A stretch of 64,000 nucleotides of DNA, taken from contig OZ246402.1 in assembly GCA_965230975.1 (NCBI GenBank), positions 1,120,859 to 1,184,858 on the forward strand, given 5' to 3'. This document shows, in pieces, positions 45,436 through 59,793 of this stretch (position 1 is the first letter of the stretch; each line of letters begins with the position of its first letter). The notes under the pieces are model-generated. The model was given only the letters and a program-made list of their open reading frames with translations, had not been told where the DNA came from and searched no databases. Source of the stretch: an uncultured Candidatus Saccharibacteria bacterium (GTDB lineage: Bacteria; Patescibacteriota; Dojkabacteria; J137). The translations under genes were made by a program, and so were the position numbers.

Positions 45436-45461
45436 TAAGGCGCCTTGGGCGTCTTTTTTTG
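45436..45461 (+). promoter_or_regulatory. L10 leader attenuator/terminator hairpin between rplA and rplJ
   Basis: AGGCGC-CTTGG-GCGTCT stem-loop followed by TTTTTTT inside the 225-nt rplJ leader. Confidence 0.6.
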
Positions 45462-46555: not shown

Positions 46556-46588
46556 TCTCAACTTTAGCTAACTTAGCTAAGTTATACA

Positions 46589-46633
46589 AGCCCCTGAAAA
46601 TCTAGATTTAATTTAGGTTTCAGGGGCTTTTTA
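46589..46633 (+). terminator. Strong Rho-independent terminator after rplL
   Basis: AGCCCCTGAAA...TTTCAGGGGCT followed by TTTTT. Confidence 0.85.
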
Positions 46634-46744
46634 GACCAAAAAATGCTATAATGCATGTAGGGTTTTAGCTTAAATTTATATTATCAGTTAAGGGTTTCTC
46701 AAAAAAGCTAGGACAAAAAACTACTAATTTTAACAGTCAAAAAA

Positions 46745-47482
46745 ATGGACATTATTTTTAATTTTTTAATAGAATACGGAGTAAAGTATTCCGATATAAT
46801 CATACTTCAAAGGTTATTCTTAATACTTTTATTAATTCCTATAGTTGCAACTATTATTGGCATTGCCAGATATGTAATAGGTTTAAGAAGTATAAACTTC
46901 TACTCTCCTCTATTTGCAAGTTTTGTATTTTTTGATATAGCAAATAATAGCGGGTCTGAAGTTAACTTTATTACCGGGCTTAAATATGGTTTATTGTTTT
47001 ATGTATGCATCTTTATAACATCTACATTGTTCTATAAATTATTGAAAAAACTAAGAATGCATTATATTCCAAAGCTTTCATTAATCATTACAGCAACATC
47101 TATTACTATGATGATTGTAATTACCCTAATGGTATTGTTAGAAAGAACACTCCCTCTATCATTTGCACCTTTCTTATTTATTGCGCTTATTGTAAGTTCA
47201 GAAGGATTTATGGCAGTTTATGCAAAAAAGAATTTTAAATACACTGCAAGATTAGCATTTGAAACACTATTAATTACACTAATTTCATATGCTGTTATAT
47301 CTATTAACGCTATTCAGTATTTTGTTTTAAATAATCCATGGTCAATATTACTTCTAATAGTAATTAACCTTTATGTTGGGAGATTTTTAGGATTAAGATT
47401 GACTGAATATTTTAGATTTCGAACTATTCTACTTAACAAAGATTTAGTTGATGAACACAATAAGTCTAATACTAAAAAATAG
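46745..47482 (+). CDS. Polytopic (6-7 TM) membrane protein, first gene of the ATP-grasp locus
   Basis: 245 aa, hydrophobic helices throughout. Preceded by an extended -10 TGCTATAAT at about 46643-46651. Confidence 0.55.
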   Translation: MDIIFNFLIEYGVKYSDIIILQRLFLILLLIPIVATIIGIARYVIGLRSINFYSPLFASFVFFDIANNSGSEVNFITGLKYGLLFYVCIFITSTLFYKLLKKLRMHYIPKLSLIITATSITMMIVITLMVLLERTLPLSFAPFLFIALIVSSEGFMAVYAKKNFKYTARLAFETLLITLISYAVISINAIQYFVLNNPWSILLLIVINLYVGRFLGLRLTEYFRFRTILLNKDLVDEHNKSNTKK

Positions 47483-48872
47483 AAAGCTTGTTTTAGGTAG
47501 AAATGAGCGTCAGTTAATATTCATAAAAAAGAATAATCTTAAGCCTGCAAAAAAAATTGCAGATAATAAAGTTTTAACAAAAAAAGTTCTTAGCAAAGCT
47601 GGCATCCCAGTACCAAAAAAGATTAAAGTTATTAGGTCTAAAGAAGATTTAGAGGTTTTTGATTTCAATTCTTTACCAAAGAGCTTTGTTGTTAAACCGG
47701 TAAGAGGTACTCGTGGAGGTGGTATTGAAATTTTTTATAATAAAGCTAAAAACGGTAGTTTTGTAAGGGCAGATAGAACTAGAATGAGTGTGCAAGATTT
47801 AAAATCTCACTGCCAAGATATTATAGATGGTAAATACTCTCTTTTTAATGAGCCAGATATTATTTTGATAGAAGAACGGGTACAAAATCATAAAAATTTT
47901 AAAAACTACACTTATAAAGGAACTCCCGATATTAGAATTATTGTATACAACAAAATTCCCATAATGTCTTATATTAGAATCCCTACAAGACAATCTGAGG
48001 GTAAGGCAAATTTAGACTTGGGAGCTATAGGTGTTGGGATTGATATTGCTGTTGGAAAAACTACAACTGCTATTATTGGAAAGTCTACCCCGATTGACAG
48101 TGTTCCAGATACAAAACTATCTTTATCTGGTTTGAAAATCCCATATTGGGATAAGATTTTAAGGTATGCAATTGAGGCAAGTGTAGCTACAAAATTGGGG
48201 TTTGCTGCTGTAGATTTTTTGATAGATAAAGAAAAGGGGCCTATGATTGTAGAACTAAATGCTAGACCCGGGCTTTCTATTCAAATTGCAAATCATGATG
48301 GTTTAAGGTGGAGATTAAAAAAAGCCAAGGGTTTAAAGGTTAAGAGTGTTGAACATGGTATTAGATTAGGCAAAAATTTATTTGGCGGAGAAATTGAAGA
48401 AGAGGTTGAAGAAATTACAGGAAAACAGGTGATAGGCCTTGTTGAGAAGGTAAAATTAATAGGCAAAAATGGAGCTGAGATCGAGGTAGAAGCTAAGATT
48501 GACACTGGAGCAGGTATGACTTCAATTGATGAGTCATTGGCGGTAGAATTAGGTTATAATAATGCAATTGAGTATTCTAAAAATATTCTTTCAGAGGCTC
48601 CTACTTTTACATCTATTGAAGAAGCAAAAAAATATTCAGAAGCTAATAAATTAAATTTCACTTTAGAAAAACACGAGGATATTGTAGGAACAGCTATTAT
48701 TAAAGCATCGAATGGTATAGGATATAGAATAAGCGTACCAGTAAAACTAAATATTTCAGGGTTAGAGCTTGAATCTTATGGGAATATTGCTACAAGAGGC
48801 AATCTAGATTTTAAAATGATTATTGGAAGCAGAGATTTAAAGAAATTTTTAATTGATCCAAGTAAAAAATAA
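47448..48872 (+). CDS. RimK-like ATP-grasp ligase fused to C-terminal retropepsin-like (DTG) peptidase domain
   Basis: ATP-grasp motifs VVKPVRGTRGGGIEIF, DIRIIVYNKIP, DFLIDKEKGPMIVELNARPGL. C-terminal EAKIDTGAGMTSID aspartic-protease-like motif. Overlaps upstream gene by 35 nt. Confidence 0.65.
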   Translation: MMNTISLILKNRKLVLGRNERQLIFIKKNNLKPAKKIADNKVLTKKVLSKAGIPVPKKIKVIRSKEDLEVFDFNSLPKSFVVKPVRGTRGGGIEIFYNKAKNGSFVRADRTRMSVQDLKSHCQDIIDGKYSLFNEPDIILIEERVQNHKNFKNYTYKGTPDIRIIVYNKIPIMSYIRIPTRQSEGKANLDLGAIGVGIDIAVGKTTTAIIGKSTPIDSVPDTKLSLSGLKIPYWDKILRYAIEASVATKLGFAAVDFLIDKEKGPMIVELNARPGLSIQIANHDGLRWRLKKAKGLKVKSVEHGIRLGKNLFGGEIEEEVEEITGKQVIGLVEKVKLIGKNGAEIEVEAKIDTGAGMTSIDESLAVELGYNNAIEYSKNILSEAPTFTSIEEAKKYSEANKLNFTLEKHEDIVGTAIIKASNGIGYRISVPVKLNISGLELESYGNIATRGNLDFKMIIGSRDLKKFLIDPSKK

Positions 48873-49774
48873 TGAAAAAAGTATTAATTACCTTCAAAAA
48901 AGAAGAAACAACTCCTAGACTCCAAGAATTAACAAATAGTATCAAAAAGTATCTAAATGAGGAGATCGAGATCGTTGCTTCTTACGGCTATAGTAATTTA
49001 GAGATTTACAGTGACCCACTAGCAGGGTTAAAGATAAAAATAAATGATCATGATATTTCAAAATTTGAAGTGGTATATATGTATACATTAAGCTCAGCTA
49101 ATTATGATATATCTTGTTTGATTGCACAGTTCTGCGAGTATAAAGGTATCAAATACATAAATTCTCGAGAAAAATTTAATTACCATGTTGGGAAAATATT
49201 GCAAAAAGTTCTATTAACTCTAAATAATATTCCAACCCCAAGGTTTTATTTTTCAAATAACCTTTCTACTCTGTCCTACGATTATCTTTCAAACTTAATT
49301 GGTGAAAGATTTATTTTAAAACAATCTAAAGCAAACTTAGGGAAAAAGGTTTTTTTGATAAATAACGAAGAGGAATTAATTACAAAATTGTCTAGTATAA
49401 AGCATAACGATGATAATGATGGTCTTTGGTTTATAGAAGAATTCATACCCCATAAGAATACCTATAGAGGTTTTGTAAGTGGCGAAGAGTGCAAAACACA
49501 AATACATGTATCAAAAGAAGTAGATTCATTTAAAACTAATCACGGTCAAGCTGTTTTTAGTCGAGAAGTCATTGCAGAAGTTAAAGAACTTGCCGTTAGG
49601 GCAGCTCAATTGCTTGAATTGCAGGTATCTGGGGTAGACATTGTTTTCGATGAAAATGATAAAAAATATAAAGTATTTGAAGTTAACAAATCACCTGGAA
49701 TTACTATTAAAGATACCTTAGAATCATTTGAAGCAGAAGACATTGCAAATTATATAAATAATCTTTTAAATTAA
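48872..49774 (+). CDS. Second ATP-grasp family ligase
   Basis: ANLGKKVFLI, FIEEFIP, VSGVDIVFDE...VFEVNKSPGI motifs. ATGA start/stop overlap with upstream gene. Confidence 0.55.
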   Translation: MKKVLITFKKEETTPRLQELTNSIKKYLNEEIEIVASYGYSNLEIYSDPLAGLKIKINDHDISKFEVVYMYTLSSANYDISCLIAQFCEYKGIKYINSREKFNYHVGKILQKVLLTLNNIPTPRFYFSNNLSTLSYDYLSNLIGERFILKQSKANLGKKVFLINNEEELITKLSSIKHNDDNDGLWFIEEFIPHKNTYRGFVSGEECKTQIHVSKEVDSFKTNHGQAVFSREVIAEVKELAVRAAQLLELQVSGVDIVFDENDKKYKVFEVNKSPGITIKDTLESFEAEDIANYINNLLN

Positions 49775-49778
49775 TATA

Positions 49779-50588
49779 ATGAATACTCCAAAGGTCAGTG
49801 TAGTAATACCAACTTATAACCGTGCTAATGTAATAACCCGATCTATATTGAGTGCTGCAAATCAAGAAACAATTGATGATATTGAAATAGTTGTAGTAGA
49901 TGATGGTAGTACAGACAATACCAAAGAGGTAATAGAAAAACTAAATTTACCAAATGTAAGGTATTTAAAAAAGGAAAATGGGGGAGTTTCTTCTGCAAGA
50001 AATGTAGGTATACGAGAGTCGAAAGGTGAATTTATTGCACTATTAGATTCAGATGATATGCTTAGGTCATGGAGTATACCGTATAGATCAGCCTTTTTGG
50101 ATCAAAACCCACATTATGATGGTATTGCTGGGTCAGCCATTAATATCAATAGTGAATTTCAAGTACATAAAAAGATGTATAGCGAGATAATGGAAAAGGA
50201 CAGAAAATTAGCCGAGTGGGAATCCTTCAACTCTAAACTTATGTTCAATAACGCTAATTCAAAGACTGAATTTTTTAAACTATGCTACCATTACATGATT
50301 TCCACCCAGGGGAAAATTCCATATACAACATCCACTACCATGATACGGAGGAAAAGTCTTATAGATAATCAAATTTATTATAACGAAAAATTAAAAAATG
50401 CTGAGGATATGGAATTTATATATAAATGCGCGAAGGCATTAAACATTAAGTACGATATCATCCGAGCTTTCGCTTACATTCAATTTCAAGAAAATGGACT
50501 AACGAAAAATCTAAAGAATGGACTTGCTCAAAACCAAAAAGATGAAGTCCTTGCATGGATTCAAAATGATTATAAAACAAATTGCTAA
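49779..50588 (+). CDS. Family 2 glycosyltransferase
   Basis: VSVVIPTYNR...VVDDGSTDNT, DSDDM motif. Confidence 0.8.
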   Translation: MNTPKVSVVIPTYNRANVITRSILSAANQETIDDIEIVVVDDGSTDNTKEVIEKLNLPNVRYLKKENGGVSSARNVGIRESKGEFIALLDSDDMLRSWSIPYRSAFLDQNPHYDGIAGSAININSEFQVHKKMYSEIMEKDRKLAEWESFNSKLMFNNANSKTEFFKLCYHYMISTQGKIPYTTSTTMIRRKSLIDNQIYYNEKLKNAEDMEFIYKCAKALNIKYDIIRAFAYIQFQENGLTKNLKNGLAQNQKDEVLAWIQNDYKTNC

Positions 50589-51439
50589 ATTGATTTGACC
50601 TTCTCGAGATATCTATGATTTCTAAAGTGGAGAATTATTGCATCCAGCAATGATAGTTGATAGTCATTTAAAAAGTCTTGTAATTGAACCTTCATATTTT
50701 CAAAATCACGTACTTTTTGTCCGGATATAATACTTTCACCAAACAAACCACCTTGTTCTGGGTGACCAGCTCTACTTCTATAAATCGCAACATAATGTTC
50801 AATTTTCTTTAAAACATAGCCATTGGCAGCTAAAGATAGCCACATTCCAGTATCTTGAGAACTTCTTATTGTATTTATCCATCTAGTTCTAACCGCAGCT
50901 TCTCTTCTAATCATTACTGACTGTGCACTAATTGGAAACTTTGAGGCTAAAACACCTTCAATTACTTCATCTCTAGTATAATTACGATACTCATTTTCAT
51001 TTAGCACATTTTCTTTTCCTGATCTAAAATAGCCTTCATCATTCATTACAAGAACATCGCCACTTACCCAATCAGCACTTGCATCACTAATTAACTCTAA
51101 ATATCGAAAGTAAGCTCCTTTTCTAGTCATTAAATCATCAGCATCAAAGGGTATAATAAAGTTACCTTTTGAAAGATCCAAAGCAGTGTTAAAAGTAACT
51201 GCTGGACCTACATTTTCTTGATTTGAAATAATGTCAACCCTAGTTATATTTGGATTTTTCCATTCAAAATCCTTTACTAATTCAAGAGAATTATCGGTTG
51301 ACTTATCATCAACTATTATAACCTCGATACTAAATTTACCATAAGTAATTTGCCTATCTATTGATGTTAGAGTGTCTACTATATATTTTTCCTTGTTATA
51401 AAGTGGGATTAATATCGAAACTAAATCTGACTGGTTCAT
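50585..51439 (-). CDS. Family 2 glycosyltransferase
   Basis: VSILIPLYNKEKYI...IIVDDKSTDNS, FDADDLM. Confidence 0.8.
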   Translation of the reverse strand: MNQSDLVSILIPLYNKEKYIVDTLTSIDRQITYGKFSIEVIIVDDKSTDNSLELVKDFEWKNPNITRVDIISNQENVGPAVTFNTALDLSKGNFIIPFDADDLMTRKGAYFRYLELISDASADWVSGDVLVMNDEGYFRSGKENVLNENEYRNYTRDEVIEGVLASKFPISAQSVMIRREAAVRTRWINTIRSSQDTGMWLSLAANGYVLKKIEHYVAIYRSRAGHPEQGGLFGESIISGQKVRDFENMKVQLQDFLNDYQLSLLDAIILHFRNHRYLEKVKSI

Positions 51440-52287
51440 TTTGTTCTTATTAAGAAATTTAATACATCTTCTGCCAAATTATTCCCGTAAGCTTCATTTA
51501 CTTTACTGAAATATGGGAATCTATTAATTTCATAAATATACAATTTATTGTCTATTATTTGAAAATCGAAAGCGCAAAAATCTATACTTAAAGCTGTAGC
51601 GATATTTTTTAACTGCTCAACAAATAGGCCATCTAAGTCAAATATCTCAATAGATTTAGTATTATTCCCTTTAAAACTTCCTTCTTTAATAAATCTCTTC
51701 ACGCACCTTATTATTTTATTGTCTAAGTAAATTGCCCGATAATCTACGGACTCTACCTTACTTGGAATAAAATCTTGTACCAAAACATCTTCTTTAACCT
51801 CACTCAACAATTGCTTTGATGCATCAATAGTATCTATTTTGTAAACTCCAGTACCTGCGCAACCTGTAACTTTCTTAATAATAGCTGGATAATTATTTAT
51901 AGAATATTCTCTATTATAATTAAATTGCGTTTGTGGAATAAAGTCACCAATATTTCCTATTAAAATACTTTGAATAAATTTATTAGAAAAAGTTGGGTAT
52001 TTTAATATAGCAGAACCATTTAATATCCTATGTGACTTATTAAGTGATAAAGTAAGTAGATAATAAAGGTGTTCATACTTCTCTGCCAGAAAAACAATAT
52101 ATTTAGCACTTTTAATCAAATCCTCATCTTTACAAAAATTAACTGAATCACCTTTTCCAATAGTAAAAGTTAGCTTTGTTGGATCAAGATCAATAGTTTC
52201 AAAACCTAATTTTTTTGCAGCAGTTGAATAAAACAAATTCCACTGCCAAGCTGGTGCCTCGCCTATAACTAGAATTTTATCACTCAT
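51436..52287 (-). CDS. Third ATP-grasp-like ligase
   Basis: PAIIKKVTGCAGTGVYKI, VLVQDFIP, YIYEINRFPYF C-terminal ATP-grasp pattern. Confidence 0.5.
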   Translation of the reverse strand: MSDKILVIGEAPAWQWNLFYSTAAKKLGFETIDLDPTKLTFTIGKGDSVNFCKDEDLIKSAKYIVFLAEKYEHLYYLLTLSLNKSHRILNGSAILKYPTFSNKFIQSILIGNIGDFIPQTQFNYNREYSINNYPAIIKKVTGCAGTGVYKIDTIDASKQLLSEVKEDVLVQDFIPSKVESVDYRAIYLDNKIIRCVKRFIKEGSFKGNNTKSIEIFDLDGLFVEQLKNIATALSIDFCAFDFQIIDNKLYIYEINRFPYFSKVNEAYGNNLAEDVLNFLIRTK

Positions 52288-52415
52288 ATAATAAATTTTA
52301 ATACAGGATTATACCATCAACCAATTCCCTTTTAAAAGCTGATATGCTAATATCTGCTAACAGAATAAGCGCAATTATTAAATCTTAGCTAACTTATTTA
52401 TTATAACCAACTTAT

Positions 52416-53024
52416 ATGATTCAAAAGCCAAGTAATTACGAAAGAACTCTGGTTATGCTAAAACCAGATGCAGTACAAAGAGGATTAATGGGAGAAATAC
52501 TATCCCGATTTGAAAAGAAAGGCCTTAAAATAACAGCAATGAAAATGGTATGGCCAACTAAAGAACAAGCAGAGCAACACTACTGGTGGAGCGATGAAGA
52601 AAAAACAAAAAACGGAAACAGAACAATAGCAATATACAAAGAAAAAGGAATAGAATTAAATAAAACACCAATCGAATTAGCCGAAGACGTACAAAAAAGA
52701 CTAATTAAATTCTTAACAGCAGGACCAGTTGTTGCAATGGTAATAGAATCTGCACACGCAATAGAACATGTAAGAAAAATCACAGGACACGGTAGCCCAC
52801 TACAAGCAGACGTAGGTACCATAAGATCTGAATTCACAATTGACTCTTACATAATGGCAGACGAAGCATTTAGAGCGGCAAGAAACCTAATACACGCATC
52901 TAGCTCTGTAGATGAAGCAGAAAGAGAACTAAAAGTATGGTTTAAAGAAGAAGAAATCTCTGACTACGAAACAGCTATCGAAAGAGTACTATACAGCATG
53001 GAATGGGAAGAACCAAAGAAATAA
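52416..53024 (+). CDS. ndk: Nucleoside diphosphate kinase with an internal insertion
   Basis: RTLVMLKPDAVQRGLMGEI...NLIHASSSVDEAERE (active-site His context); 202 aa versus about 140 typical. Confidence 0.75.
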   Translation: MIQKPSNYERTLVMLKPDAVQRGLMGEILSRFEKKGLKITAMKMVWPTKEQAEQHYWWSDEEKTKNGNRTIAIYKEKGIELNKTPIELAEDVQKRLIKFLTAGPVVAMVIESAHAIEHVRKITGHGSPLQADVGTIRSEFTIDSYIMADEAFRAARNLIHASSSVDEAERELKVWFKEEEISDYETAIERVLYSMEWEEPKK

Positions 53025-53309: not shown

Positions 53310-54464
53310 TTAATAAGGAACATAAGGAGCTGGGTCTACAATAACACCATTAATTCTCAACCCAAAATGCAAGTGAGTACCTGTACAATTACCCGTACAA
53401 CCCATATACATTAAATCTTGACCTTGAGAAACCTGTTGACCAGATCTAACCCAAATATTTCCATCTCCATGATAATAATGACTTTGAACACCGTTACCAT
53501 GGTCTATTCTAACATTGTAACCTTCACCATAAGTACCCCAACCAGCATAAACTACCGTACCCGAAGCAATAGCCCTAATAGGACACCCTCCTCCTTTTGC
53601 TAAGTCAACACCATTATGCCAAGGTAAAAATCCTCGAGACAAAATATAACCACCACAGTCAGGATTAGACAAAGGATTTGCCGTAGAAATACCATTTACA
53701 TTGCCCGAACCACTAACTAAAGATTGTCCATAGTTTGTTGGGTACCTTGCATAAACAGGTTGTGGCAATGGTGGCGGAGGTGGTGGCAACTTACCATCTG
53801 GAATTAATATTTTTGTACCTACAGTCACTTTAAAATCTGGATATTCTAATTCATTTACACCAATTACCGCTTCCCTATCACCAGAAGTTTTTGAAACAAT
53901 ACTTTCCAAAGTATCACCAGCCTTTACCTCGTATAAAACACCCGGAACCTCCGGAATCTGCAAAGTATCTCCTACATTTAACTTTTCTGAATAATAATCT
54001 ATTTGAGAATTTGCCCATTTAATTGTATCTTTTGAAACCTTAAATTTATCTGCTACGCTTTGAAGGCTGTCTCCATTTTGGACTACATATTGATTAACTG
54101 TAAAGTAAACACCCGGAGTTGACGCTAAAACGGTCTGAATACTGCCACCCTGCTGTAACAAATCTATATCACCAGGGTTCAAAGCCGACTGAATAGATAA
54201 TGTTTGAGAAGTAGATTGAACAGCATTTAACCTGGTAGAAATTCCTGTTAGCACAATTAAAACTGAAAATACAAAAAAAGAAACATGAAGAATATTTTTA
54301 TATAAAGAACTTCTACCCCAAAAAGACCTGTAGACAAGTGCCTTTTTACTTCCTTCTAAACCTTTAGTTAAAGACTTAGCTGATACGCCAAAAAAAGCTA
54401 GTATAATTTTAGCCCACAAAATGGGATTTAAAAAAGAAGCAATTTGTTTAATGCGACCAAACAA
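53310..54464 (-). CDS. Secreted/membrane-anchored M23 (LytM) peptidase with two LysM domains
   Basis: LysM (YVVQNGDSLQSVADKF, YEVKAGDTLESIVSK), poly-Pro linker, M23 motifs HNGVDL...HLHFG. Confidence 0.85.
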   Translation of the reverse strand: MFGRIKQIASFLNPILWAKIILAFFGVSAKSLTKGLEGSKKALVYRSFWGRSSLYKNILHVSFFVFSVLIVLTGISTRLNAVQSTSQTLSIQSALNPGDIDLLQQGGSIQTVLASTPGVYFTVNQYVVQNGDSLQSVADKFKVSKDTIKWANSQIDYYSEKLNVGDTLQIPEVPGVLYEVKAGDTLESIVSKTSGDREAVIGVNELEYPDFKVTVGTKILIPDGKLPPPPPPLPQPVYARYPTNYGQSLVSGSGNVNGISTANPLSNPDCGGYILSRGFLPWHNGVDLAKGGGCPIRAIASGTVVYAGWGTYGEGYNVRIDHGNGVQSHYYHGDGNIWVRSGQQVSQGQDLMYMGCTGNCTGTHLHFGLRINGVIVDPAPYVPY

Positions 54465-54525
54465 TCTTTTAATATCAAAGACTGTAATAACTTAGACCTG
54501 AAAATTATACCACGAAAAGAGTTGC

Positions 54526-54558
54526 CAATAAAAAGGGCCCCGACATTGTCGGGGCCCT
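54526..54558 (-). terminator. Rho-independent terminator downstream of rho (minus strand)
   Basis: GGGCCCCGACAATGTCGGGGCCC followed on the minus strand by TTTTTATT. Confidence 0.8.
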
Positions 54559-54647
54559 TTGGTATTTTGTTATTAGAAGAATTTTTAATTTATACAACTT
54601 AATACTCTAGCCTAGCTACATGCACTCAGCTTTAGCATTAAACTCAA

Positions 54648-55937
54648 TTACATTGTTTCGTGTAATGTTGCTAAAAATTCTTCGTTGTTTTTTGTTTTCT
54701 TTAATCTTTCTACCAAAACCTCTGTTGGGCTAGCGTTAGATTCTGTTTTAATCATATCTAACATTCTAATTACCCTCCATGTTTGAGCTAAGATTTCTGG
54801 TTTTAACAGCTTATCTTCATTTCTTGTGTAAGACTGAGTTACGTCTATTGCAGGGAAAATTCTTCTTTCTGTTAATCTTCTATCTAATTTAACTTCCATG
54901 TTACCAGTTCCTTTAAATTCTTCGAAAATAACTTCGTCCATCTTGCTTCCAGTATCTACTAAAGCTGTTGCAATAATTGTTAAACTACCTCCATTTTCCA
55001 TATTTCTAGCTGCTCCAAAGAACTTTTTTGGTGGGAAAATAGCCTTAGGGTCAAAACCTCCGGATAATGTTCTTCCAGATGGTGGTTCTACAATGTTATA
55101 TGCTCTAGCCAATCTTGTAATACTATCCATTAAAATAACTACGTCTTTGCCGTACTCTACAAGTCTTTTTGCCCTCTCAACTGCCATTTCACTAATTTTT
55201 GTGTGATATTCTGGCATTTCATCAAAGTTTGCAGCAATTACCTCGCCTTTTACAAATCTTTGCATATCAGTTACTTCTTCTGGTCTTTCACCTACTAACA
55301 ACACCATCAAATGAATTTCTGGGTGATTTTTTGCAATTCCAGCTGCAATATCTTTCATTAACCATGTTTTACCGGCTTTTGGGGGAGCAACAATCATTCC
55401 TCTTTGACCTTTACCAATTGGGGAAATTAAGTCAATGATTCTTGTAGCAATTGTATGTTGATCTGTTTCTAATTTAATTTGTTCGTCTGGGAAGATTGGC
55501 GTTAAGCTTTGAAAGCTTGGTCTTGTAATAGCCTTTTCAGGACTATAGCCATTAATTGCTTCAATTTTTAATAAGCTTAAGTATCTTTCACCTTCCTTTG
55601 GTGGTCTTGCTTGACCAGATATAAAGTCTCCTTGTCTTAAGTTAAATCTTTTAATTTGAGAACCAGATACATAAACATCGTTTTCACCAGGAAGCATTGT
55701 TGCAGATCTTAATACTCCATGAGTATCTTTAATAATTTCTAAAAAGCCTTCGGCAAATATATTGCCTCCTCTTTTAGTTTGCTCTGCTACAATATTTAAA
55801 ATTAGGTCGTTCTTTTTGAGTTCTGAAGAATCTTTAATGTCTAAATCTGCTGCTACTTTTCTTAACTCTGCTAATGTTTTGCTTTCTAAATCTTTAATAC
55901 TTGTTGATTGCACAATAGTATCTTTTTTCGTTGCCAT
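54648..55937 (-). CDS. rho: Transcription termination factor Rho
   Basis: Rho N-terminal domain, OB/CSD, RecA-like ATPase (GQRGMIVAPPKAGKTWLM). Confidence 0.95.
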   Translation of the reverse strand: MATKKDTIVQSTSIKDLESKTLAELRKVAADLDIKDSSELKKNDLILNIVAEQTKRGGNIFAEGFLEIIKDTHGVLRSATMLPGENDVYVSGSQIKRFNLRQGDFISGQARPPKEGERYLSLLKIEAINGYSPEKAITRPSFQSLTPIFPDEQIKLETDQHTIATRIIDLISPIGKGQRGMIVAPPKAGKTWLMKDIAAGIAKNHPEIHLMVLLVGERPEEVTDMQRFVKGEVIAANFDEMPEYHTKISEMAVERAKRLVEYGKDVVILMDSITRLARAYNIVEPPSGRTLSGGFDPKAIFPPKKFFGAARNMENGGSLTIIATALVDTGSKMDEVIFEEFKGTGNMEVKLDRRLTERRIFPAIDVTQSYTRNEDKLLKPEILAQTWRVIRMLDMIKTESNASPTEVLVERLKKTKNNEEFLATLHETM

Positions 55938-56443
55938 ACTATAAAAATGAAAATATATAAATAAAAAGTTGAATTACTTTGAAGTTTGAATGTTACTAAT
56001 TAGTACATTTAATAAATAAATCATTTTGGTTAATACCTAGATGCTTTTGGTAAGGTAAATTTGTTTTACCAACTGTCTTGATGATTCTCTTATTACTTTA
56101 CAACAAAGCAAGATGAGAAATATATCGAAGTTGCATTAATTATATTCCAAAATTTAAAGTTAGTCTACAGTTTATATTTTAGGGAATTATTTTGAAAGGA
56201 AAATACCCGCTAATCCGAGAGTCCAGTAAGTACCCAGTAACGTAAGTCACCGAGTTGTACGCGAACCAGACTCTGGGATTAATTGGTATTTTTTAAAGGA
56301 ACACTATTATTATACCCTATAATTATAAAATGTCAACACCTATAGTATTGAGCTATCTCTTGTGCACAAGGCTGGCAATGGATAAATTAGACTATTTGAA
56401 AACTACAAATGCTATAATCTGCTCTAAGATTTACAGATGAATT

Positions 56444-57262
56444 ATGAAAACACAGACAATGCTAGAAGAAACAGCCCTAGAGTTGGTCCATGGATACAAT
56501 GTCGATTCCTCAAGCGTAGAACCTACTAGAATAGACCTATTTAATAAGATGGTGCACAAAGGAATATTAATAGGACTCTCTAAAATTAAGATGGAAGATG
56601 GAAAAATTATTATACCCATAAGATATCATCACTTATCAAAAATAAAATCCCTCCTCAAATCAATTATAGATTATAGAATAGACCCCACGGATCTTGAGTC
56701 AATGCAAGATTTAATAAGCACTTATGTAAATAATATTATTGGGAGTACAAATTTCTTAGCAAAGCTCACTGGTGATAGCACATATAAAGACGATTTACTT
56801 GGAACCGACTCGGATTCACCACTGACAGAGGCAGAGAGAATCTTAGCGGTAAGAACAATCAATGAAAAAAGATTATACGTTATCTTAACCTTGATTATTA
56901 GCCATACCGAATTAACTATTTTAAAAGTTGGAGGATTAGTAGATAGTGTTCATTGTGAGAACTTAATTGGAAAATGCCAACATTGCCATATTGTAATGAG
57001 CGCTAAACCATTAAACGACGACCAATCTTCTTACTTAGATACTGCAGACTTTAAAGATACTCTCGATTTAGCTAAGACTTCTCAGTTACAGCTACATTAC
57101 GAACCGCAACTAGTGATAAGATTTGCTAGCAACGACACCTCCACTCCCTATAAAACGATATTTGCAGAAAACTCACCATTGAGTGGAGATGTCGCAAATG
57201 TGCCATATATAAACTTAAGTTCTACACTTTTAATAGAAAGCCTACACTCCCAAGAAAGCTAG
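56444..57262 (+). CDS. Hypothetical protein with Cys/His cluster (CENLIGKCQHCH)
   Basis: 272 aa, no recognisable family. Extended -10 TGCTATAAT at about 56411-56419. Composition slightly GC-richer than neighbours. Confidence 0.5.
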   Translation: MKTQTMLEETALELVHGYNVDSSSVEPTRIDLFNKMVHKGILIGLSKIKMEDGKIIIPIRYHHLSKIKSLLKSIIDYRIDPTDLESMQDLISTYVNNIIGSTNFLAKLTGDSTYKDDLLGTDSDSPLTEAERILAVRTINEKRLYVILTLIISHTELTILKVGGLVDSVHCENLIGKCQHCHIVMSAKPLNDDQSSYLDTADFKDTLDLAKTSQLQLHYEPQLVIRFASNDTSTPYKTIFAENSPLSGDVANVPYINLSSTLLIESLHSQES

Positions 57263-57267
57263 TCCCC

Positions 57268-59793
57268 TTATTTCTCAAACTCAAATTTAGCAACCCCTTC
57301 TTTAACAAATGCTCGTATTTTTAGAGTATTCTTTCTTTTTTGAGAGATTTTATTTTCTAACAAGAATTTTGCTAAACCATTTTGAAGAATATCCTGAACT
57401 TTTCTTCTTATATTCCTACCTCCAAATTCTTTACTGTAACCCTCATCGTTAATCTTTTGAATAACACTATCATCTACGGTAATGTAAACACCCTTAGGAA
57501 TCATTTGCAATACAAATTCATTAACCTGTTTTTTAGATATTAGCAAGCAATCTTCTTTATTTAAGCCCCTAAAGATATCTATCAAATCAATTCTATTTAA
57601 AATCTCAGGTCTCATTTGAAATCTAAGCTCCTCCATAATTTTGTCCCTCATATCTTCGTATGCACGGTCTAGCTCTTTAGTTTCAAGATCATCAATTCTA
57701 ATATCAAAACCTAGTCTAGAATCCGTTGACACATCTCTAGCTCCAATATTTGAGGTCATTATAATTATTGTATTTCTTAAAGAGACTTTCAAACCTTTTC
57801 CATCTGTAATTTCACCTTCTTCTAAAATTTGCAAAAGCAAATTTAGAACATCCGGGTGAGCCTTCTCTATTTCATCAAAAAGCACTACACAATAAGGTTT
57901 TCTTTTTACAAAAGTAGTTAATTGACCGCCATCTTGAAAACCAACATAACCTGGAGGAGAGCCTATGAGCTTGGAAACGCTATGCTGCTCCATAAATTCA
58001 CTCATATTTATTTGAAATAGCAAGTTGTCAGAACCAAACAATTCTCTTGCCAAAGATTTAGCCAACTCCGTTTTACCAACTCCTGTAGGTCCTAAAAACA
58101 AGAAGGAAGATAATGGCCTTTTATCACTATTCAAACCTAAATGAGATCTCTGTATAGCCATTGTGACCTCATCTATTATTTTTTCTTGACCAATAACCCT
58201 CTCTTTTAATTTTGGAGACAAATCTTTTAAAGACTTGTCTGAAATATCGCTTGCTGCAATTGGAATTTTTGTCCATTCTACTACAATATTTCTGATCAAT
58301 TCTGAAGTTACCGTTTTAGAGTACTTTGAGCTTGTTTTCTTTTTTCCATCTATAACATCTTCAATCTCTTTTATTACAGCATTCTCTTTATCTTTGAATT
58401 CAGATGCTTTTTTAAAATCCTTATTATTTAAAGCTTTTTGTTTTTTTTCTTGAATTTGAAGTAGCTCTTCACCCAACCTACTTAATTCCGGCTCTAAATC
58501 AATTTCTCTACCTACCTTTACGCTAGCAGCAGCCTCATCTATTAAATCAATTGCCTTATCTGGCAAGTATCTATCTTTTATATATTTATCTGATACCTCT
58601 ACAGCCGTATCTACCGCATCTAATTTAATCTTTACATTATGAAATTTTTCAAATTCGGGTACAATTGTTCTAATTACATTTTTTGCGGCATCCAAGCTTA
58701 ATTCTTCTACAAAAATCGGCTGAAACCTTCTTGCTAAAGCAGCATCTGATTCAAAGTATTTACTATATTCATCATGCGTTGTAGCACCAATAACACTTAG
58801 ATTTGAATTTGTTAAATATGGTTTTAGAATATTTGCAATATCCATACTATCTCTAGCCCCTGCAGATCCGGCCCCTACGATTGTGTGAATTTCATCAATA
58901 AACAATATTGTGTCTCCCGATTCCATGACTTCTTCTAGGATTACACTTAACCGCTCCTCTACATCTCCTCTTAAGCGTGCACCCGCCAAAATCGCGGATA
59001 TGTCTAAATTTACTACTTTTTTATTTATAAATGATGCAGGGACTTTTTTTTGAACTAAACGATTTACAAAGCCTTCTACTATTGCAGTTTTACCAACACC
59101 AGCTTCTCCAACCAAGATAGGGTTGTTTTTGGTTTTTCTTGCTAGGATGTGTATTAACCTTTTAATTTCTTGATCTCTGCCACTAATATTGGGAAAGCTA
59201 TCTTCTAAAGCTTGTTGATTCATATCTCTAGAAAAATCCTCTAGAGCATTGTCTTTAAAATCTGCAAATTCGTTAGCAACTCTTGAACCCTGAGGATTCA
59301 TTTGTCCTGGATATGTTACTGTAGAAAGCAGTGCTTTTTGCACCATTTCATAGTTTATACCCAATTTTTTCATATCTTCAATAAAGTCTACATTTTGTAA
59401 TTTAAACATAGCCAATAACAAATGTTCTGTACCTACATAGACGTTTTGAAGCTCTGAAGCAATTACAAAAGCGTTATTTATTATCTCTTTTATCTCTTCT
59501 GAAAACTGAGTTGTTATATCTATATTTGAAAGTGAATTATCTTCAAACTTGATTTTAAATTTGCTTATTGTTGTATCTATATCGATTCCGACTTTTTGAA
59601 TAATTTCGCTTACTACATTGTTTCTATCTCTTAGCATTTCATAGAATAAATGCATGGGTGTATATTGCCTAAAATTATGCTCCTGTGCTGTATCAAATCC
59701 TTTTTGAATTATGTTTCTGGCATTTAAAGTTAGTCTTTGAAAGCCTTTTGTATCTTGAGTTAATTGGTTATCCATAAGTGTTGTAGAAATCAT
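57268..59793 (-). CDS. clpC: Clp/Hsp100 AAA+ chaperone, ClpC-like (Clp-N, two AAA modules, UVR-like linker)
   Basis: GEAGVGKTAIVEGF and LFLGPTGVGKTELAK Walker A motifs; Clp_N repeats; short middle domain. Confidence 0.9.
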   Translation of the reverse strand: MISTTLMDNQLTQDTKGFQRLTLNARNIIQKGFDTAQEHNFRQYTPMHLFYEMLRDRNNVVSEIIQKVGIDIDTTISKFKIKFEDNSLSNIDITTQFSEEIKEIINNAFVIASELQNVYVGTEHLLLAMFKLQNVDFIEDMKKLGINYEMVQKALLSTVTYPGQMNPQGSRVANEFADFKDNALEDFSRDMNQQALEDSFPNISGRDQEIKRLIHILARKTKNNPILVGEAGVGKTAIVEGFVNRLVQKKVPASFINKKVVNLDISAILAGARLRGDVEERLSVILEEVMESGDTILFIDEIHTIVGAGSAGARDSMDIANILKPYLTNSNLSVIGATTHDEYSKYFESDAALARRFQPIFVEELSLDAAKNVIRTIVPEFEKFHNVKIKLDAVDTAVEVSDKYIKDRYLPDKAIDLIDEAAASVKVGREIDLEPELSRLGEELLQIQEKKQKALNNKDFKKASEFKDKENAVIKEIEDVIDGKKKTSSKYSKTVTSELIRNIVVEWTKIPIAASDISDKSLKDLSPKLKERVIGQEKIIDEVTMAIQRSHLGLNSDKRPLSSFLFLGPTGVGKTELAKSLARELFGSDNLLFQINMSEFMEQHSVSKLIGSPPGYVGFQDGGQLTTFVKRKPYCVVLFDEIEKAHPDVLNLLLQILEEGEITDGKGLKVSLRNTIIIMTSNIGARDVSTDSRLGFDIRIDDLETKELDRAYEDMRDKIMEELRFQMRPEILNRIDLIDIFRGLNKEDCLLISKKQVNEFVLQMIPKGVYITVDDSVIQKINDEGYSKEFGGRNIRRKVQDILQNGLAKFLLENKISQKRKNTLKIRAFVKEGVAKFEFEK

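Follow-up and report, generated by a model that had tools for sequence, protein, structure and literature searches.

A membrane protein and a fused ligase-peptidase related to RloABC form a conserved core, followed by variable ligase and glycosyltransferase genes, in Dojkabacteria

We analysed a locus of six genes (46745-52287) in a window of 64,000 nucleotides taken from contig OZ246402.1 (assembly GCA_965230975.1) of an uncultured bacterium of the Dojkabacteria (Patescibacteria). The first two genes form the core (46745-48872) and encode a seven-transmembrane (7TM) protein and a protein in which an ATP-grasp ligase is fused to a retropepsin-like peptidase. From sequence alignment, this core is an rloB gene restricted to its 7TM part followed by an rloC::rloA fusion, because ligase, peptidase and 7TM protein align with RloC, RloA and RloB of the canonical rloA-rloB-rloC operon used for comparison, that of Legionella adelaidensis plasmid NZ_LR134414.1. 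The four following genes (48872-52287) encode two more ATP-grasp ligases, Grasp2 and Grasp3, and two family-2 glycosyltransferases, GT2a and GT2b, and make up an add-on that varies between lineages. All the open reading frames (ORFs) lie at the coordinates and on the strands given in a preliminary description of this DNA, and Pfam and NCBIfam profile searches agree with the domains that it had recognised (7TM, ATP-grasp, GT2 and retropepsin-like). The weak NCBIfam matches include models bearing the names RloA, RloB and RimB.

The fused ligase-peptidase and its membrane partner

The fused gene (47451-48872, plus strand; alternative TTG start at 47448) encodes 473 amino acids matching PF14397, TIGR02291 and, at the C-terminal end, PF05618. 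Its ligase domain (residues 1-311, 47451-48383) scores 210.8 bits with PF14397 (ATPgrasp_ST, 'sugar-transfer associated' ATP-grasp; Pfam gathering cut-off 31.4) and 255 bits with the NCBIfam model TIGR02291, named 'alpha-L-glutamate ligase-like' (equivalog cut-off 314). The domain is 38% identical to the whole 314-residue Legionella RloC (E 2e-62), and the alignment stops at F311, exactly where RloC ends. The ATP/Mg motifs K82, D255 and E268-x-N270 are invariant, and the best Foldseek matches of the whole protein are ArgX, LysX and RimK. Its homologues place the RloC-type domain among the carboxylate-amine ligases, in the structural class of RimK, LysX and ArgX. The preliminary description had called it RimK-type, a label that has to be changed: the fused protein reaches 14.8 bits with PRK10446 (cut-off 331) and 50 bits with TIGR00768 (cut-off 143.4) and does not qualify as a RimK equivalog, and its profile matches class the ligase as RloC-type (TIGR02291/PF14397) and not as RimK sensu stricto. 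With the TupA-like family PF14305 it scores 16.9 bits, under the gathering cut-off of 25.

Where stand-alone RloC ends, a Glu-rich linker begins (FGGEIEEEVEEIT; 48381-48419, plus strand), defined from the translation and from an alignment of 78 fused proteins on which all residue counts for this protein are based. Its F-G-G-E-I-E-E-E-(I/V)-E pattern is among the best-conserved stretches of the fused protein. Indeed, in the FGGEIEEEVE of the window, F, G and G are present in 78/78 sequences, E314 in 75, I315 in 77, E316 in 75, E317 in 71, E318 in 63 and E320 in 72. The predicted local distance difference test (pLDDT) score is low at residues 314-322. Because this conserved Glu-rich stretch directly precedes a protease whose homologues cut polyglutamate, the linker may act as a pseudo-substrate or be cleaved in autoprocessing.

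The peptidase domain (residues 324-473, 48420-48872) was examined by profile search and by structure prediction. First, a profile built from 28 family members and run against the sequences of the PDB retrieved RloA (9G58, E 2.7e-10), RloA2 (9G59, 1.9e-8), Lpg0085 (2PMA, 5e-6) and Ddi1 (2e-3). Second, the domain was modelled alone with AlphaFold (AF2), as the whole-protein Foldseek search is swamped by the ATP-grasp half and uninformative on the peptidase. The model has a pLDDT of 92.1, and Foldseek places RloA (9g58), RloA2 (9g59) and Lpg0085 (2pma) at the top, followed by Ddi1 and the HTLV and HIV proteases (E 2e-6 to 1e-3). The C-terminal 150 residues also align end to end with Legionella RloA (24% identity). 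The preliminary description had proposed the retropepsin-like nature of its DTG segment as a test set beforehand; in profile and model alike, the segment is predicted to have a retropepsin-like fold of the RloA/RimB type.

The residues expected of such an enzyme are in place. In RloA, mutagenesis identified K46, D48, R114 and R137 as residues that bind polyglutamate and support function (PMC12239564). They align with K349, with the catalytic D351 within KIDTGA (48495-48512), with R426 (48726-48728) and with R449 (48795-48797) of the fused protein, which are conserved as K/R in 78/78, in 78/78, in 75/78 and in 78/78 sequences, respectively. An I-I-G459 motif is likewise found in 78/78. A helical insert of about 45 residues follows the DTGA strand and precedes the second beta-sheet, at roughly the place taken by the flap in other retropepsins. 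By analogy with the behaviour of the family, the peptidase is probably a homodimer with one active site, and its homology predicts specificity for acidic alpha-peptides. Since residues 324-473 are internal to the ligase polypeptide, the peptidase can have no signal peptide of its own.

The 7TM gene (46745-47482, plus strand) encodes 245 amino acids and matches PF14402 (7TM_transglut) with 58.2 bits (cut-off 25). Its seven hydrophobic segments fit the six to seven that had been described, and hydropathy and the distribution of K and R are consistent with an N-out/C-in topology. The protein matches positions 300-506 only of the 508 of the NCBIfam RloB model and is 24% identical to residues 308-500 of Legionella RloB (E 1e-10), including the terminal motif. 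The 69 orthologues compared have in common P32, T36, G46, Y107, E153, K162, N208, G212, G216, R218, E221, R224 and F225, the last of these residues belonging to a conserved cytoplasmic C-terminal motif, G-L-R-x-x-E-x-x-R-F. The 245 residues do not include the inactive transglutaminase domain of RloB, and the DNA upstream, occupied by rplL and its terminator, does not encode it either. The cytoplasmic tail was also considered as a glutamylation acceptor and rejected: the tails are short and variable, with D or E at the end in only 13/69 (two orthologues end in EEE or VEE).

Distribution was assessed in a species-level scan (one genome per species) that yielded 360 genomes with a relative of the fused protein, from which the best 80 loci were fetched; these cover Dojkabacteria, Moranbacteria, Woesebacteria, Paceibacteria and others, and supply the gene and locus counts given here. 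The 7TM gene lies directly upstream of the fused gene in 79/80 loci, an arrangement far beyond chance. The functional unit of ATP-grasp, retropepsin and 7TM protein put forward in the preliminary description is thus upheld by this adjacency, as it is by homology to rloABC; the computational prediction to which that description alluded is reportedly the 2009 amidoligase paper of Iyer and Aravind. Its remark that no such system had been characterised experimentally is outdated, the rloABC operon of Pseudomonas aeruginosa having been characterised genetically and structurally (Lormand et al., mBio 2025; PMC12239564).

The fused protein has thousands of relatives, and the best 120 are full-length and 53-83% identical, the named ones being Dojkabacteria or Patescibacteria. 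Across 36 genomes its median identity is 55%, compared with 56% for ribosomal protein L7/L12, and it exceeds that of L10 in 33/36. Since conservation of the fused protein equals that of L7/L12 and all related loci fetched have the core, the core is not accessory. The accessory status that had been suggested for the whole locus therefore fails for the 7TM and fused genes and holds for the four downstream genes, which are absent from the closest complete genome (locus L043). None of the six proteins had a PADLOC match to a defence system at E <= 1e-3, and an anti-phage defence system was ruled out on these grounds.

The genomic setting of the core differs between lineages. In Moranbacteria-type genomes it is flanked by yebC-ruvC on one side and by a class A penicillin-binding protein (PBP) gene and ruvA on the other. 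The PBP gene follows the cluster co-directionally in 29 Moranbacteria-type loci (e.g. L054:14795-17359), and mreB stands beside the cluster in 23 loci, of Dojkabacteria (e.g. L022:11385-12392). By analogy, these neighbourhoods seem to echo the phenotypes that rlo mutants of Pseudomonas show in cell shape and with beta-lactams. Outside this group, an RloC-like ORF (38% identity to residues 14-290) was seen beside transposases on plasmid CP007061.1 of Halobacterium sp. DL1 (L091, 106185-107009); it falls in a stretch with no listed gene, in a gene table that is incomplete, and may be annotated in the original record.

Transcription signals and the variable slot

The locus is separated from the ribosomal operon by the intrinsic terminator of rplL (46588-46629, plus strand), a 19-bp hairpin of -24.4 kcal/mol (z = -5.8; 0/200 shuffled sequences fold as well) with UUUUU directly after it; the preliminary description had also placed an rplL terminator here. 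An extended -10 promoter-like element TGCTATAAT (46644-46652, plus strand; TGnTATAAT), recognised by its resemblance to the consensus, lies about 90 nucleotides upstream of the 7TM gene. Across the region, promoter-like matches are not enriched over shuffled sequence. The 225-nucleotide rplA-rplJ gap contains a terminator-like hairpin (45437-45455; 8 bp, 5 GC, then TTTTT) at the position where an L10-leader or attenuator is expected, and no Rfam family reaches its gathering threshold there. In searches with Rfam and ARAGORN only tRNAs were found in the window, none of them within the locus, and neither rpoB nor rpoC is present anywhere in the 64 kb.

This boundary bears on one alternative, in which the pair adds glutamates to a ribosomal protein and removes them again, by analogy with the action of RimK and RimB on S6. 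The gene order rplJ-rplL-7TM-fused recurs in all 33+ Dojkabacteria-type loci, the peptidase would be cytoplasmic like RimB, and RimBK hybrids exist. Against these points stand the strong terminator and the separate promoter-like element between rplL and the locus, and the synteny is lost elsewhere, the pair lying between ruvC and the PBP gene in Moranbacteria-type genomes. Moreover, the ligase is RloC-type, its 7TM partner would have no role in a ribosomal pathway, and the C-termini of L7/L12 and L10 are non-acidic here. We consider a ribosomal target very improbable.

The gene junctions are tight, as the preliminary description had noted. The 7TM and fused genes overlap by 32 nucleotides, the fused gene and Grasp2 share a TAATG start-stop overlap, 4 nucleotides separate Grasp2 from GT2a, and Grasp3 and GT2b overlap at ATGA. 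GT2a and GT2b are convergent, with stop codons overlapping by 4 nucleotides (50585-50588); as there is no terminator-like structure between them, transcripts of both strands must run into each other. The best-scoring promoter-like site for the minus-strand pair, TTTAAA-17-TG-TATAAT (52308-52336, minus strand), is a consensus match in the 128-nucleotide divergent intergenic region between Grasp3 and ndk. The ndk gene (52416-53024) encodes 202 amino acids matched by Pfam and NCBIfam in two parts (about residues 9-56 and 94-181), which implies an insertion of about 35 residues, and many related Dojkabacteria have two tandem ndk copies (e.g. L006, L010, L012 and L022). The GC content of the locus (0.31-0.32) is the same as in the rest of the window; a recent horizontal acquisition of the four-gene extension thus has no compositional signal in its favour.

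The slot between the fused gene and ndk is where genomes differ. In L043, ndk directly follows the fused gene. The synteny downstream (53310-59793 in the window, with a LysM and M23 peptidase gene, rho and a ClpB-like gene of 841 amino acids) is common to L043 and L083, so that only this slot varies between these genomes. One to three stand-alone ATP-grasp genes, identified by iterative searches, directly follow the core in 46 of the 62 loci with enough downstream sequence (74%). They fall into three RimK-superfamily clusters and an ATP-grasp_4 type, with Grasp2 in the largest cluster.

In the window, Grasp2 (48872-49774, plus strand; 300 amino acids) scores 57.4 bits with PF08443 and 90.6 bits with TIGR00768, under the cut-off of 143.4. 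It has only three close homologues (59, 58 and 47% identity), of which two (58% and 47%) occupy the same position after the core in L083 and L084, and in the nearest relatives it is followed by a GT2a orthologue (46%) or by a MATCAP gene. Grasp3, the first gene of the minus-strand pair (51436-52287; 283 amino acids), scores 58.4 bits with PF08443 and 55 bits with TIGR00768, again under the cut-off. A word-indexed search gave no homologue of Grasp3, and only six full-length relatives (30-35% identity) were found among 1.84 billion representatives. Its relatives stand beside GT2 genes in 3/4 contexts examined: in another Dojkabacterium (L085) the relative fills the same slot, and L086 and L087 have the other two in different settings with GT2 genes. 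Neither Grasp2 nor Grasp3 matches TupA-like PF14305.

The two glycosyltransferases match PF00535 (cut-off 23.3) with 113 bits for GT2a (49779-50588, plus strand; 269 amino acids) and 86.4 bits for GT2b, the second gene of the minus-strand pair (50585-51439; 284 amino acids). Both have DxD-type motifs, VVVDDGSTD and LDSDD in GT2a and IIVDDKSTD and FDADD in GT2b. The best NCBIfam likenesses of GT2a, all far under their cut-offs, are EpsD, TuaG and WcaA, and that of GT2b is TuaG. GT2a orthologues (46% in L084, 43% in L086) adjoin ligases of the Grasp2 or Grasp3 type, and GT2b orthologues (46%, two copies, in L085; 41% in L087) flank Grasp3-like genes. Pairs of the Grasp2-GT2a or Grasp3-GT2b type thus recur in these four genomes, and the pairing of ligase and GT2 is a recurrent unit, sometimes beside the Rlo-like core and sometimes not. 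The link between ligases and glycosyltransferases drawn in the preliminary description is accordingly plausible, and its surface-glycan reading applies at most to an add-on of a sub-lineage, not to the core. An inverted duplication of the unit within the window was rejected: Grasp2 and Grasp3 are 21% identical, and GT2a and GT2b 31% over the N-terminal 129 residues only.

These observations also raise the possibility that the four-gene add-on is functionally independent of the core, forming a Cj1438-like module of its own for amidating a surface glycan, placed in the variable core-ndk slot of a compact genome. Locus L043, which runs from the fused gene directly into ndk, would fit, as would L087, where Grasp3-like and GT2b-like genes lie in a glycan cluster (GT4, GT28, methyltransferase, epimerase) with no core within 8 kb, L086 being similar. 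The minus-strand pair has its own promoter-like site, and GT2 genes accompany few cores. Against independence, Grasp2 is start-stop coupled to the fused gene and kept directly after the core in L083 and L084, extra ATP-grasp genes follow the core directly in 74% of loci, and L085 again has a GT2-Grasp3-GT2 unit in the core-ndk slot. We regard a fully separate module as somewhat unlikely.

Other enzymes occupy the slot elsewhere. Metallopeptidases of the MATCAP/QEGLA family (PF08014, TIGR02421, HExxH) follow ATP-grasp genes in four loci (L083:8910-10385, L072:14702-16003, L051:6303-7637 and L038:5362-6696). The eukaryotic MATCAP namesake removes the C-terminal tyrosine of tubulin, and by analogy this family would suit the editing of peptide tails. 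The slot of L085 also contains an M29 aminopeptidase and a GT4, GNATs stand beside the core in several loci, and a split CphA-like system has its G domain at L010:5960-6931 and its M domain at L010:7811-9079 (187 and 253 bits to TIGR02068), with a further case at L008:12402-13403. The peptidases, GNATs and split CphA-like genes among these associates all have a chemistry of ligating or editing peptides. Neither a CphA-like nor a GNAT gene is present in the window itself.

Proposed function

Altogether, we propose that the region has two layers, an Rlo-like core for the membrane-docked synthesis and trimming of acidic chains and a lineage-variable add-on that decorates the product, and we give this reading a probability of about 0.6. 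The polyglutamate chemistry, the role of the 7TM protein and the link to a glycan are inferred by analogy with characterised systems. Past the rplL terminator, a promoter of its own would drive transcription of the core. The ligase would dock at the cytoplasmic face of the 7TM protein via the GLRxxExxRF tail and use ATP to make alpha-linked acidic chains, most likely of glutamate, either free or on an acceptor. The fused peptidase would have to dimerise for activity, thereby dimerising the ligase, and would trim, size or release the chains, in the way that RimB acts on the products of RimK. The 7TM protein would pass the product to the envelope or couple its synthesis with the envelope. Patescibacteria are believed to have neither an outer membrane nor a periplasm, and for this reason the peptidase is expected to act in the cytoplasm, unlike the secreted RloA of Pseudomonas. 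In the add-on, the two RimK-superfamily ligases, each paired with a GT2, probably add amino acids to carboxylates of a GT2-built glycan or extend a peptide, and the outcome would be a lineage-specific anionic glyco-peptide component of the envelope.

Several points weigh against this proposal. The ligase domain stays below the equivalog cut-off of TIGR02291, the single-sequence PF05618 score of the peptidase (23.8 bits) is just under the gathering cut-off of 27, and amino-acid specificity is not readable from sequence for any of the three ligases. No acidic substrate was found: the ORFs of the window contain no run of at least five D/E and no acidic C-terminus, the 77 loci searched have no ORF for a small acidic-tailed carrier (LysW-like) near the core, no poly-acidic neighbour of the core is recurrent, and the 7TM tails are not systematically acidic among orthologues. 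The product and acceptor of Pseudomonas RloBC are themselves not known (PMC12239564). GT2 genes accompany the core in only 4/77 loci, and in L086 and L087 Grasp3/GT2 modules lie apart from any core, so the add-on may be independent of the core. Finally, the PBP and mreB associations each come from essentially one lineage with compact genomes, where inherited synteny is possible.

The lack of a protein acceptor near the core or in the window is also what would be expected of a cytoplasmic storage or osmolyte peptide, with ligases making free poly-alpha-glutamate or a cyanophycin-like or N-acetylglutaminylglutamine (NAGGN)-like polymer, a retropepsin remobilising it and the 7TM protein acting as sensor or regulator. 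Split cyanophycin-synthetase-like G and M proteins and GNATs beside the core in several loci are consistent with this, RimK with RimB yields free poly-alpha-glutamate both in vivo and in vitro, the phenotypes linked to Rlo are osmotic, and glutamate serves as an osmolyte. We nonetheless hold such a role to be quite unlikely: a membrane partner with a conserved docking-like cytoplasmic motif is kept in 79/80 loci, CphA-like and GNAT genes are missing from the window, and the secretion of RloA in Pseudomonas implies an extracytoplasmic product there.

A stronger form of the membrane-docked proposal can be conceived, in which the core is a self-contained, near-universal write-and-trim machine for poly-glutamylation of an envelope precursor or polymer in several classes of Patescibacteria, the linker gates the protease as a built-in pseudo-substrate or autoprocessing site, and the variable enzymes diversify the product as in O-antigen or capsule loci. 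We judge this form unlikely. If true, these two genes would be the simplest way to learn what biochemical product all Rlo systems make, those of the clinically relevant Pseudomonas and Vibrio among them. In Pseudomonas, Rlo systems influence survival of osmotic stress, cell shape, biofilm and tolerance of beta-lactams.

We found no paper on Rlo-type genes in Patescibacteria, on an RloC::RloA fusion, on a transglutaminase-less RloB or on the conserved linker. The patescibacterial form would represent Rlo reduced to two genes, with ligase and protease fixed at 1:1 in the cytoplasm. The fusion also constrains models of Rlo function, as it suggests that the peptidase need not be extracytoplasmic and that Rlo can do without the transglutaminase-like domain. 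Genomes of about 1 Mb keep the core under purifying selection matching that on a ribosomal protein, which suggests an important role in the envelope or in osmotic tolerance. Very little is known of the cell surface of these largely uncultured organisms. The Glu-rich linker and the C-terminal motif of the 7TM protein provide mutable hypotheses for regulation and docking, respectively, and the variable slot offers a natural catalogue of enzymes that may co-evolve with the core: ligases, GT2 and GT4 glycosyltransferases, MATCAP/QEGLA and M29 peptidases and split cyanophycin-synthetase-like genes.

Comparison with known systems

One likeness is to CphA1 (a G domain with a Mur-ligase M domain) and to N-acetylglutaminylglutamine synthetase (GNAT with ATP-grasp), which share template-independent synthesis of a peptide or polymer, and separate G and M proteins and GNAT-ATP-grasp fusions stand beside the core in L010, L008 and L003. 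The proteins of the window differ in matching these models with at most 35 bits (cut-offs 569-877).

The add-on has functional analogues in surface polymers. Cj1438 of Campylobacter jejuni combines a GT2 with a TupA-like ATP-grasp amidoligase that amidates capsule glucuronate (PMC11800379), and the teichuronopeptide of Bacillus halodurans combines polyglutamate with polyuronate (PMC8153356). An ATP-grasp ligase and a GT2 acting together are analogous to Grasp2-GT2a and Grasp3-GT2b, a resemblance of function and not of membership: the ligases of the window are of the RimK superfamily (PF08443) and not TupA-like (PF14305), ligase and glycosyltransferase are separate proteins, and no gene of a uronic-acid pathway was identified in the locus.

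For the fused enzyme, close counterparts are RimK-RimB and RimBK (Pseudomonas fluorescens; Desulfotalea DP2392), in which an ATP-grasp alpha-L-glutamate ligase works with a cytoplasmic polyglutamate-specific retropepsin, natural fusions included. RimB both stimulates RimK and cleaves its polyglutamate products, and RimB-RimK hybrids exist (JBC 2025; PMC11957791), so that a fused write-and-trim enzyme has a precedent. The order in these hybrids, judging from the name alone, would be peptidase first, whereas the ligase of the window is N-terminal; it is not a RimK equivalog and has an obligatory 7TM partner. Nothing in the window points to RpsF, the S6 protein with its Glu-Glu C-terminus, as the target, and no rpsF was noticed among its ORFs, which were not fully annotated.

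RloABC operons occur in P. aeruginosa and other Gammaproteobacteria, and in Vibrio the cell-wall stress system VxrAB strongly induces Rlo systems. In P. aeruginosa, RloA is a secreted retropepsin (crystal structures 9G58 and 9G59) that cleaves stretches of at least eight glutamates in vitro, RloB is an inactive transglutaminase fused to a 7TM region, and RloC is a cytoplasmic ATP-grasp protein (PMC12239564). A triple mutant without its three RloA paralogues dies in hypo-osmotic conditions and is defective in cell shape, biofilm and antibiotic response, deletion of rloB or rloC suppresses these defects, and 96% of RloB matches are in Proteobacteria (PMC12239564). The core described here differs from this system in its patescibacterial host and in the one to three extra ATP-grasp paralogues that usually follow it. 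Its gene order is B-(C::A) and not A-B-C, ligase and peptidase are one polypeptide joined by the Glu-rich linker whereas RloA is separate and secreted with a signal peptide, the peptidase has about 45 residues more as a helical insert, and the periplasmic inactive-transglutaminase domain of RloB, about 300 residues long, is missing from the 7TM protein. Nonetheless, the RloC-type ATP-grasp, the RloB-type 7TM protein and the RloA-type retropepsin are all homologous, and their genes are contiguous and co-directional. Furthermore, the peptidase of the window and RloA both have KxDTGA, the two polyglutamate-binding arginines and an IIG...IDPSKK end, and the terminal motif of Legionella RloB, GxRLxExxRF, is also found in the 7TM protein of the window.

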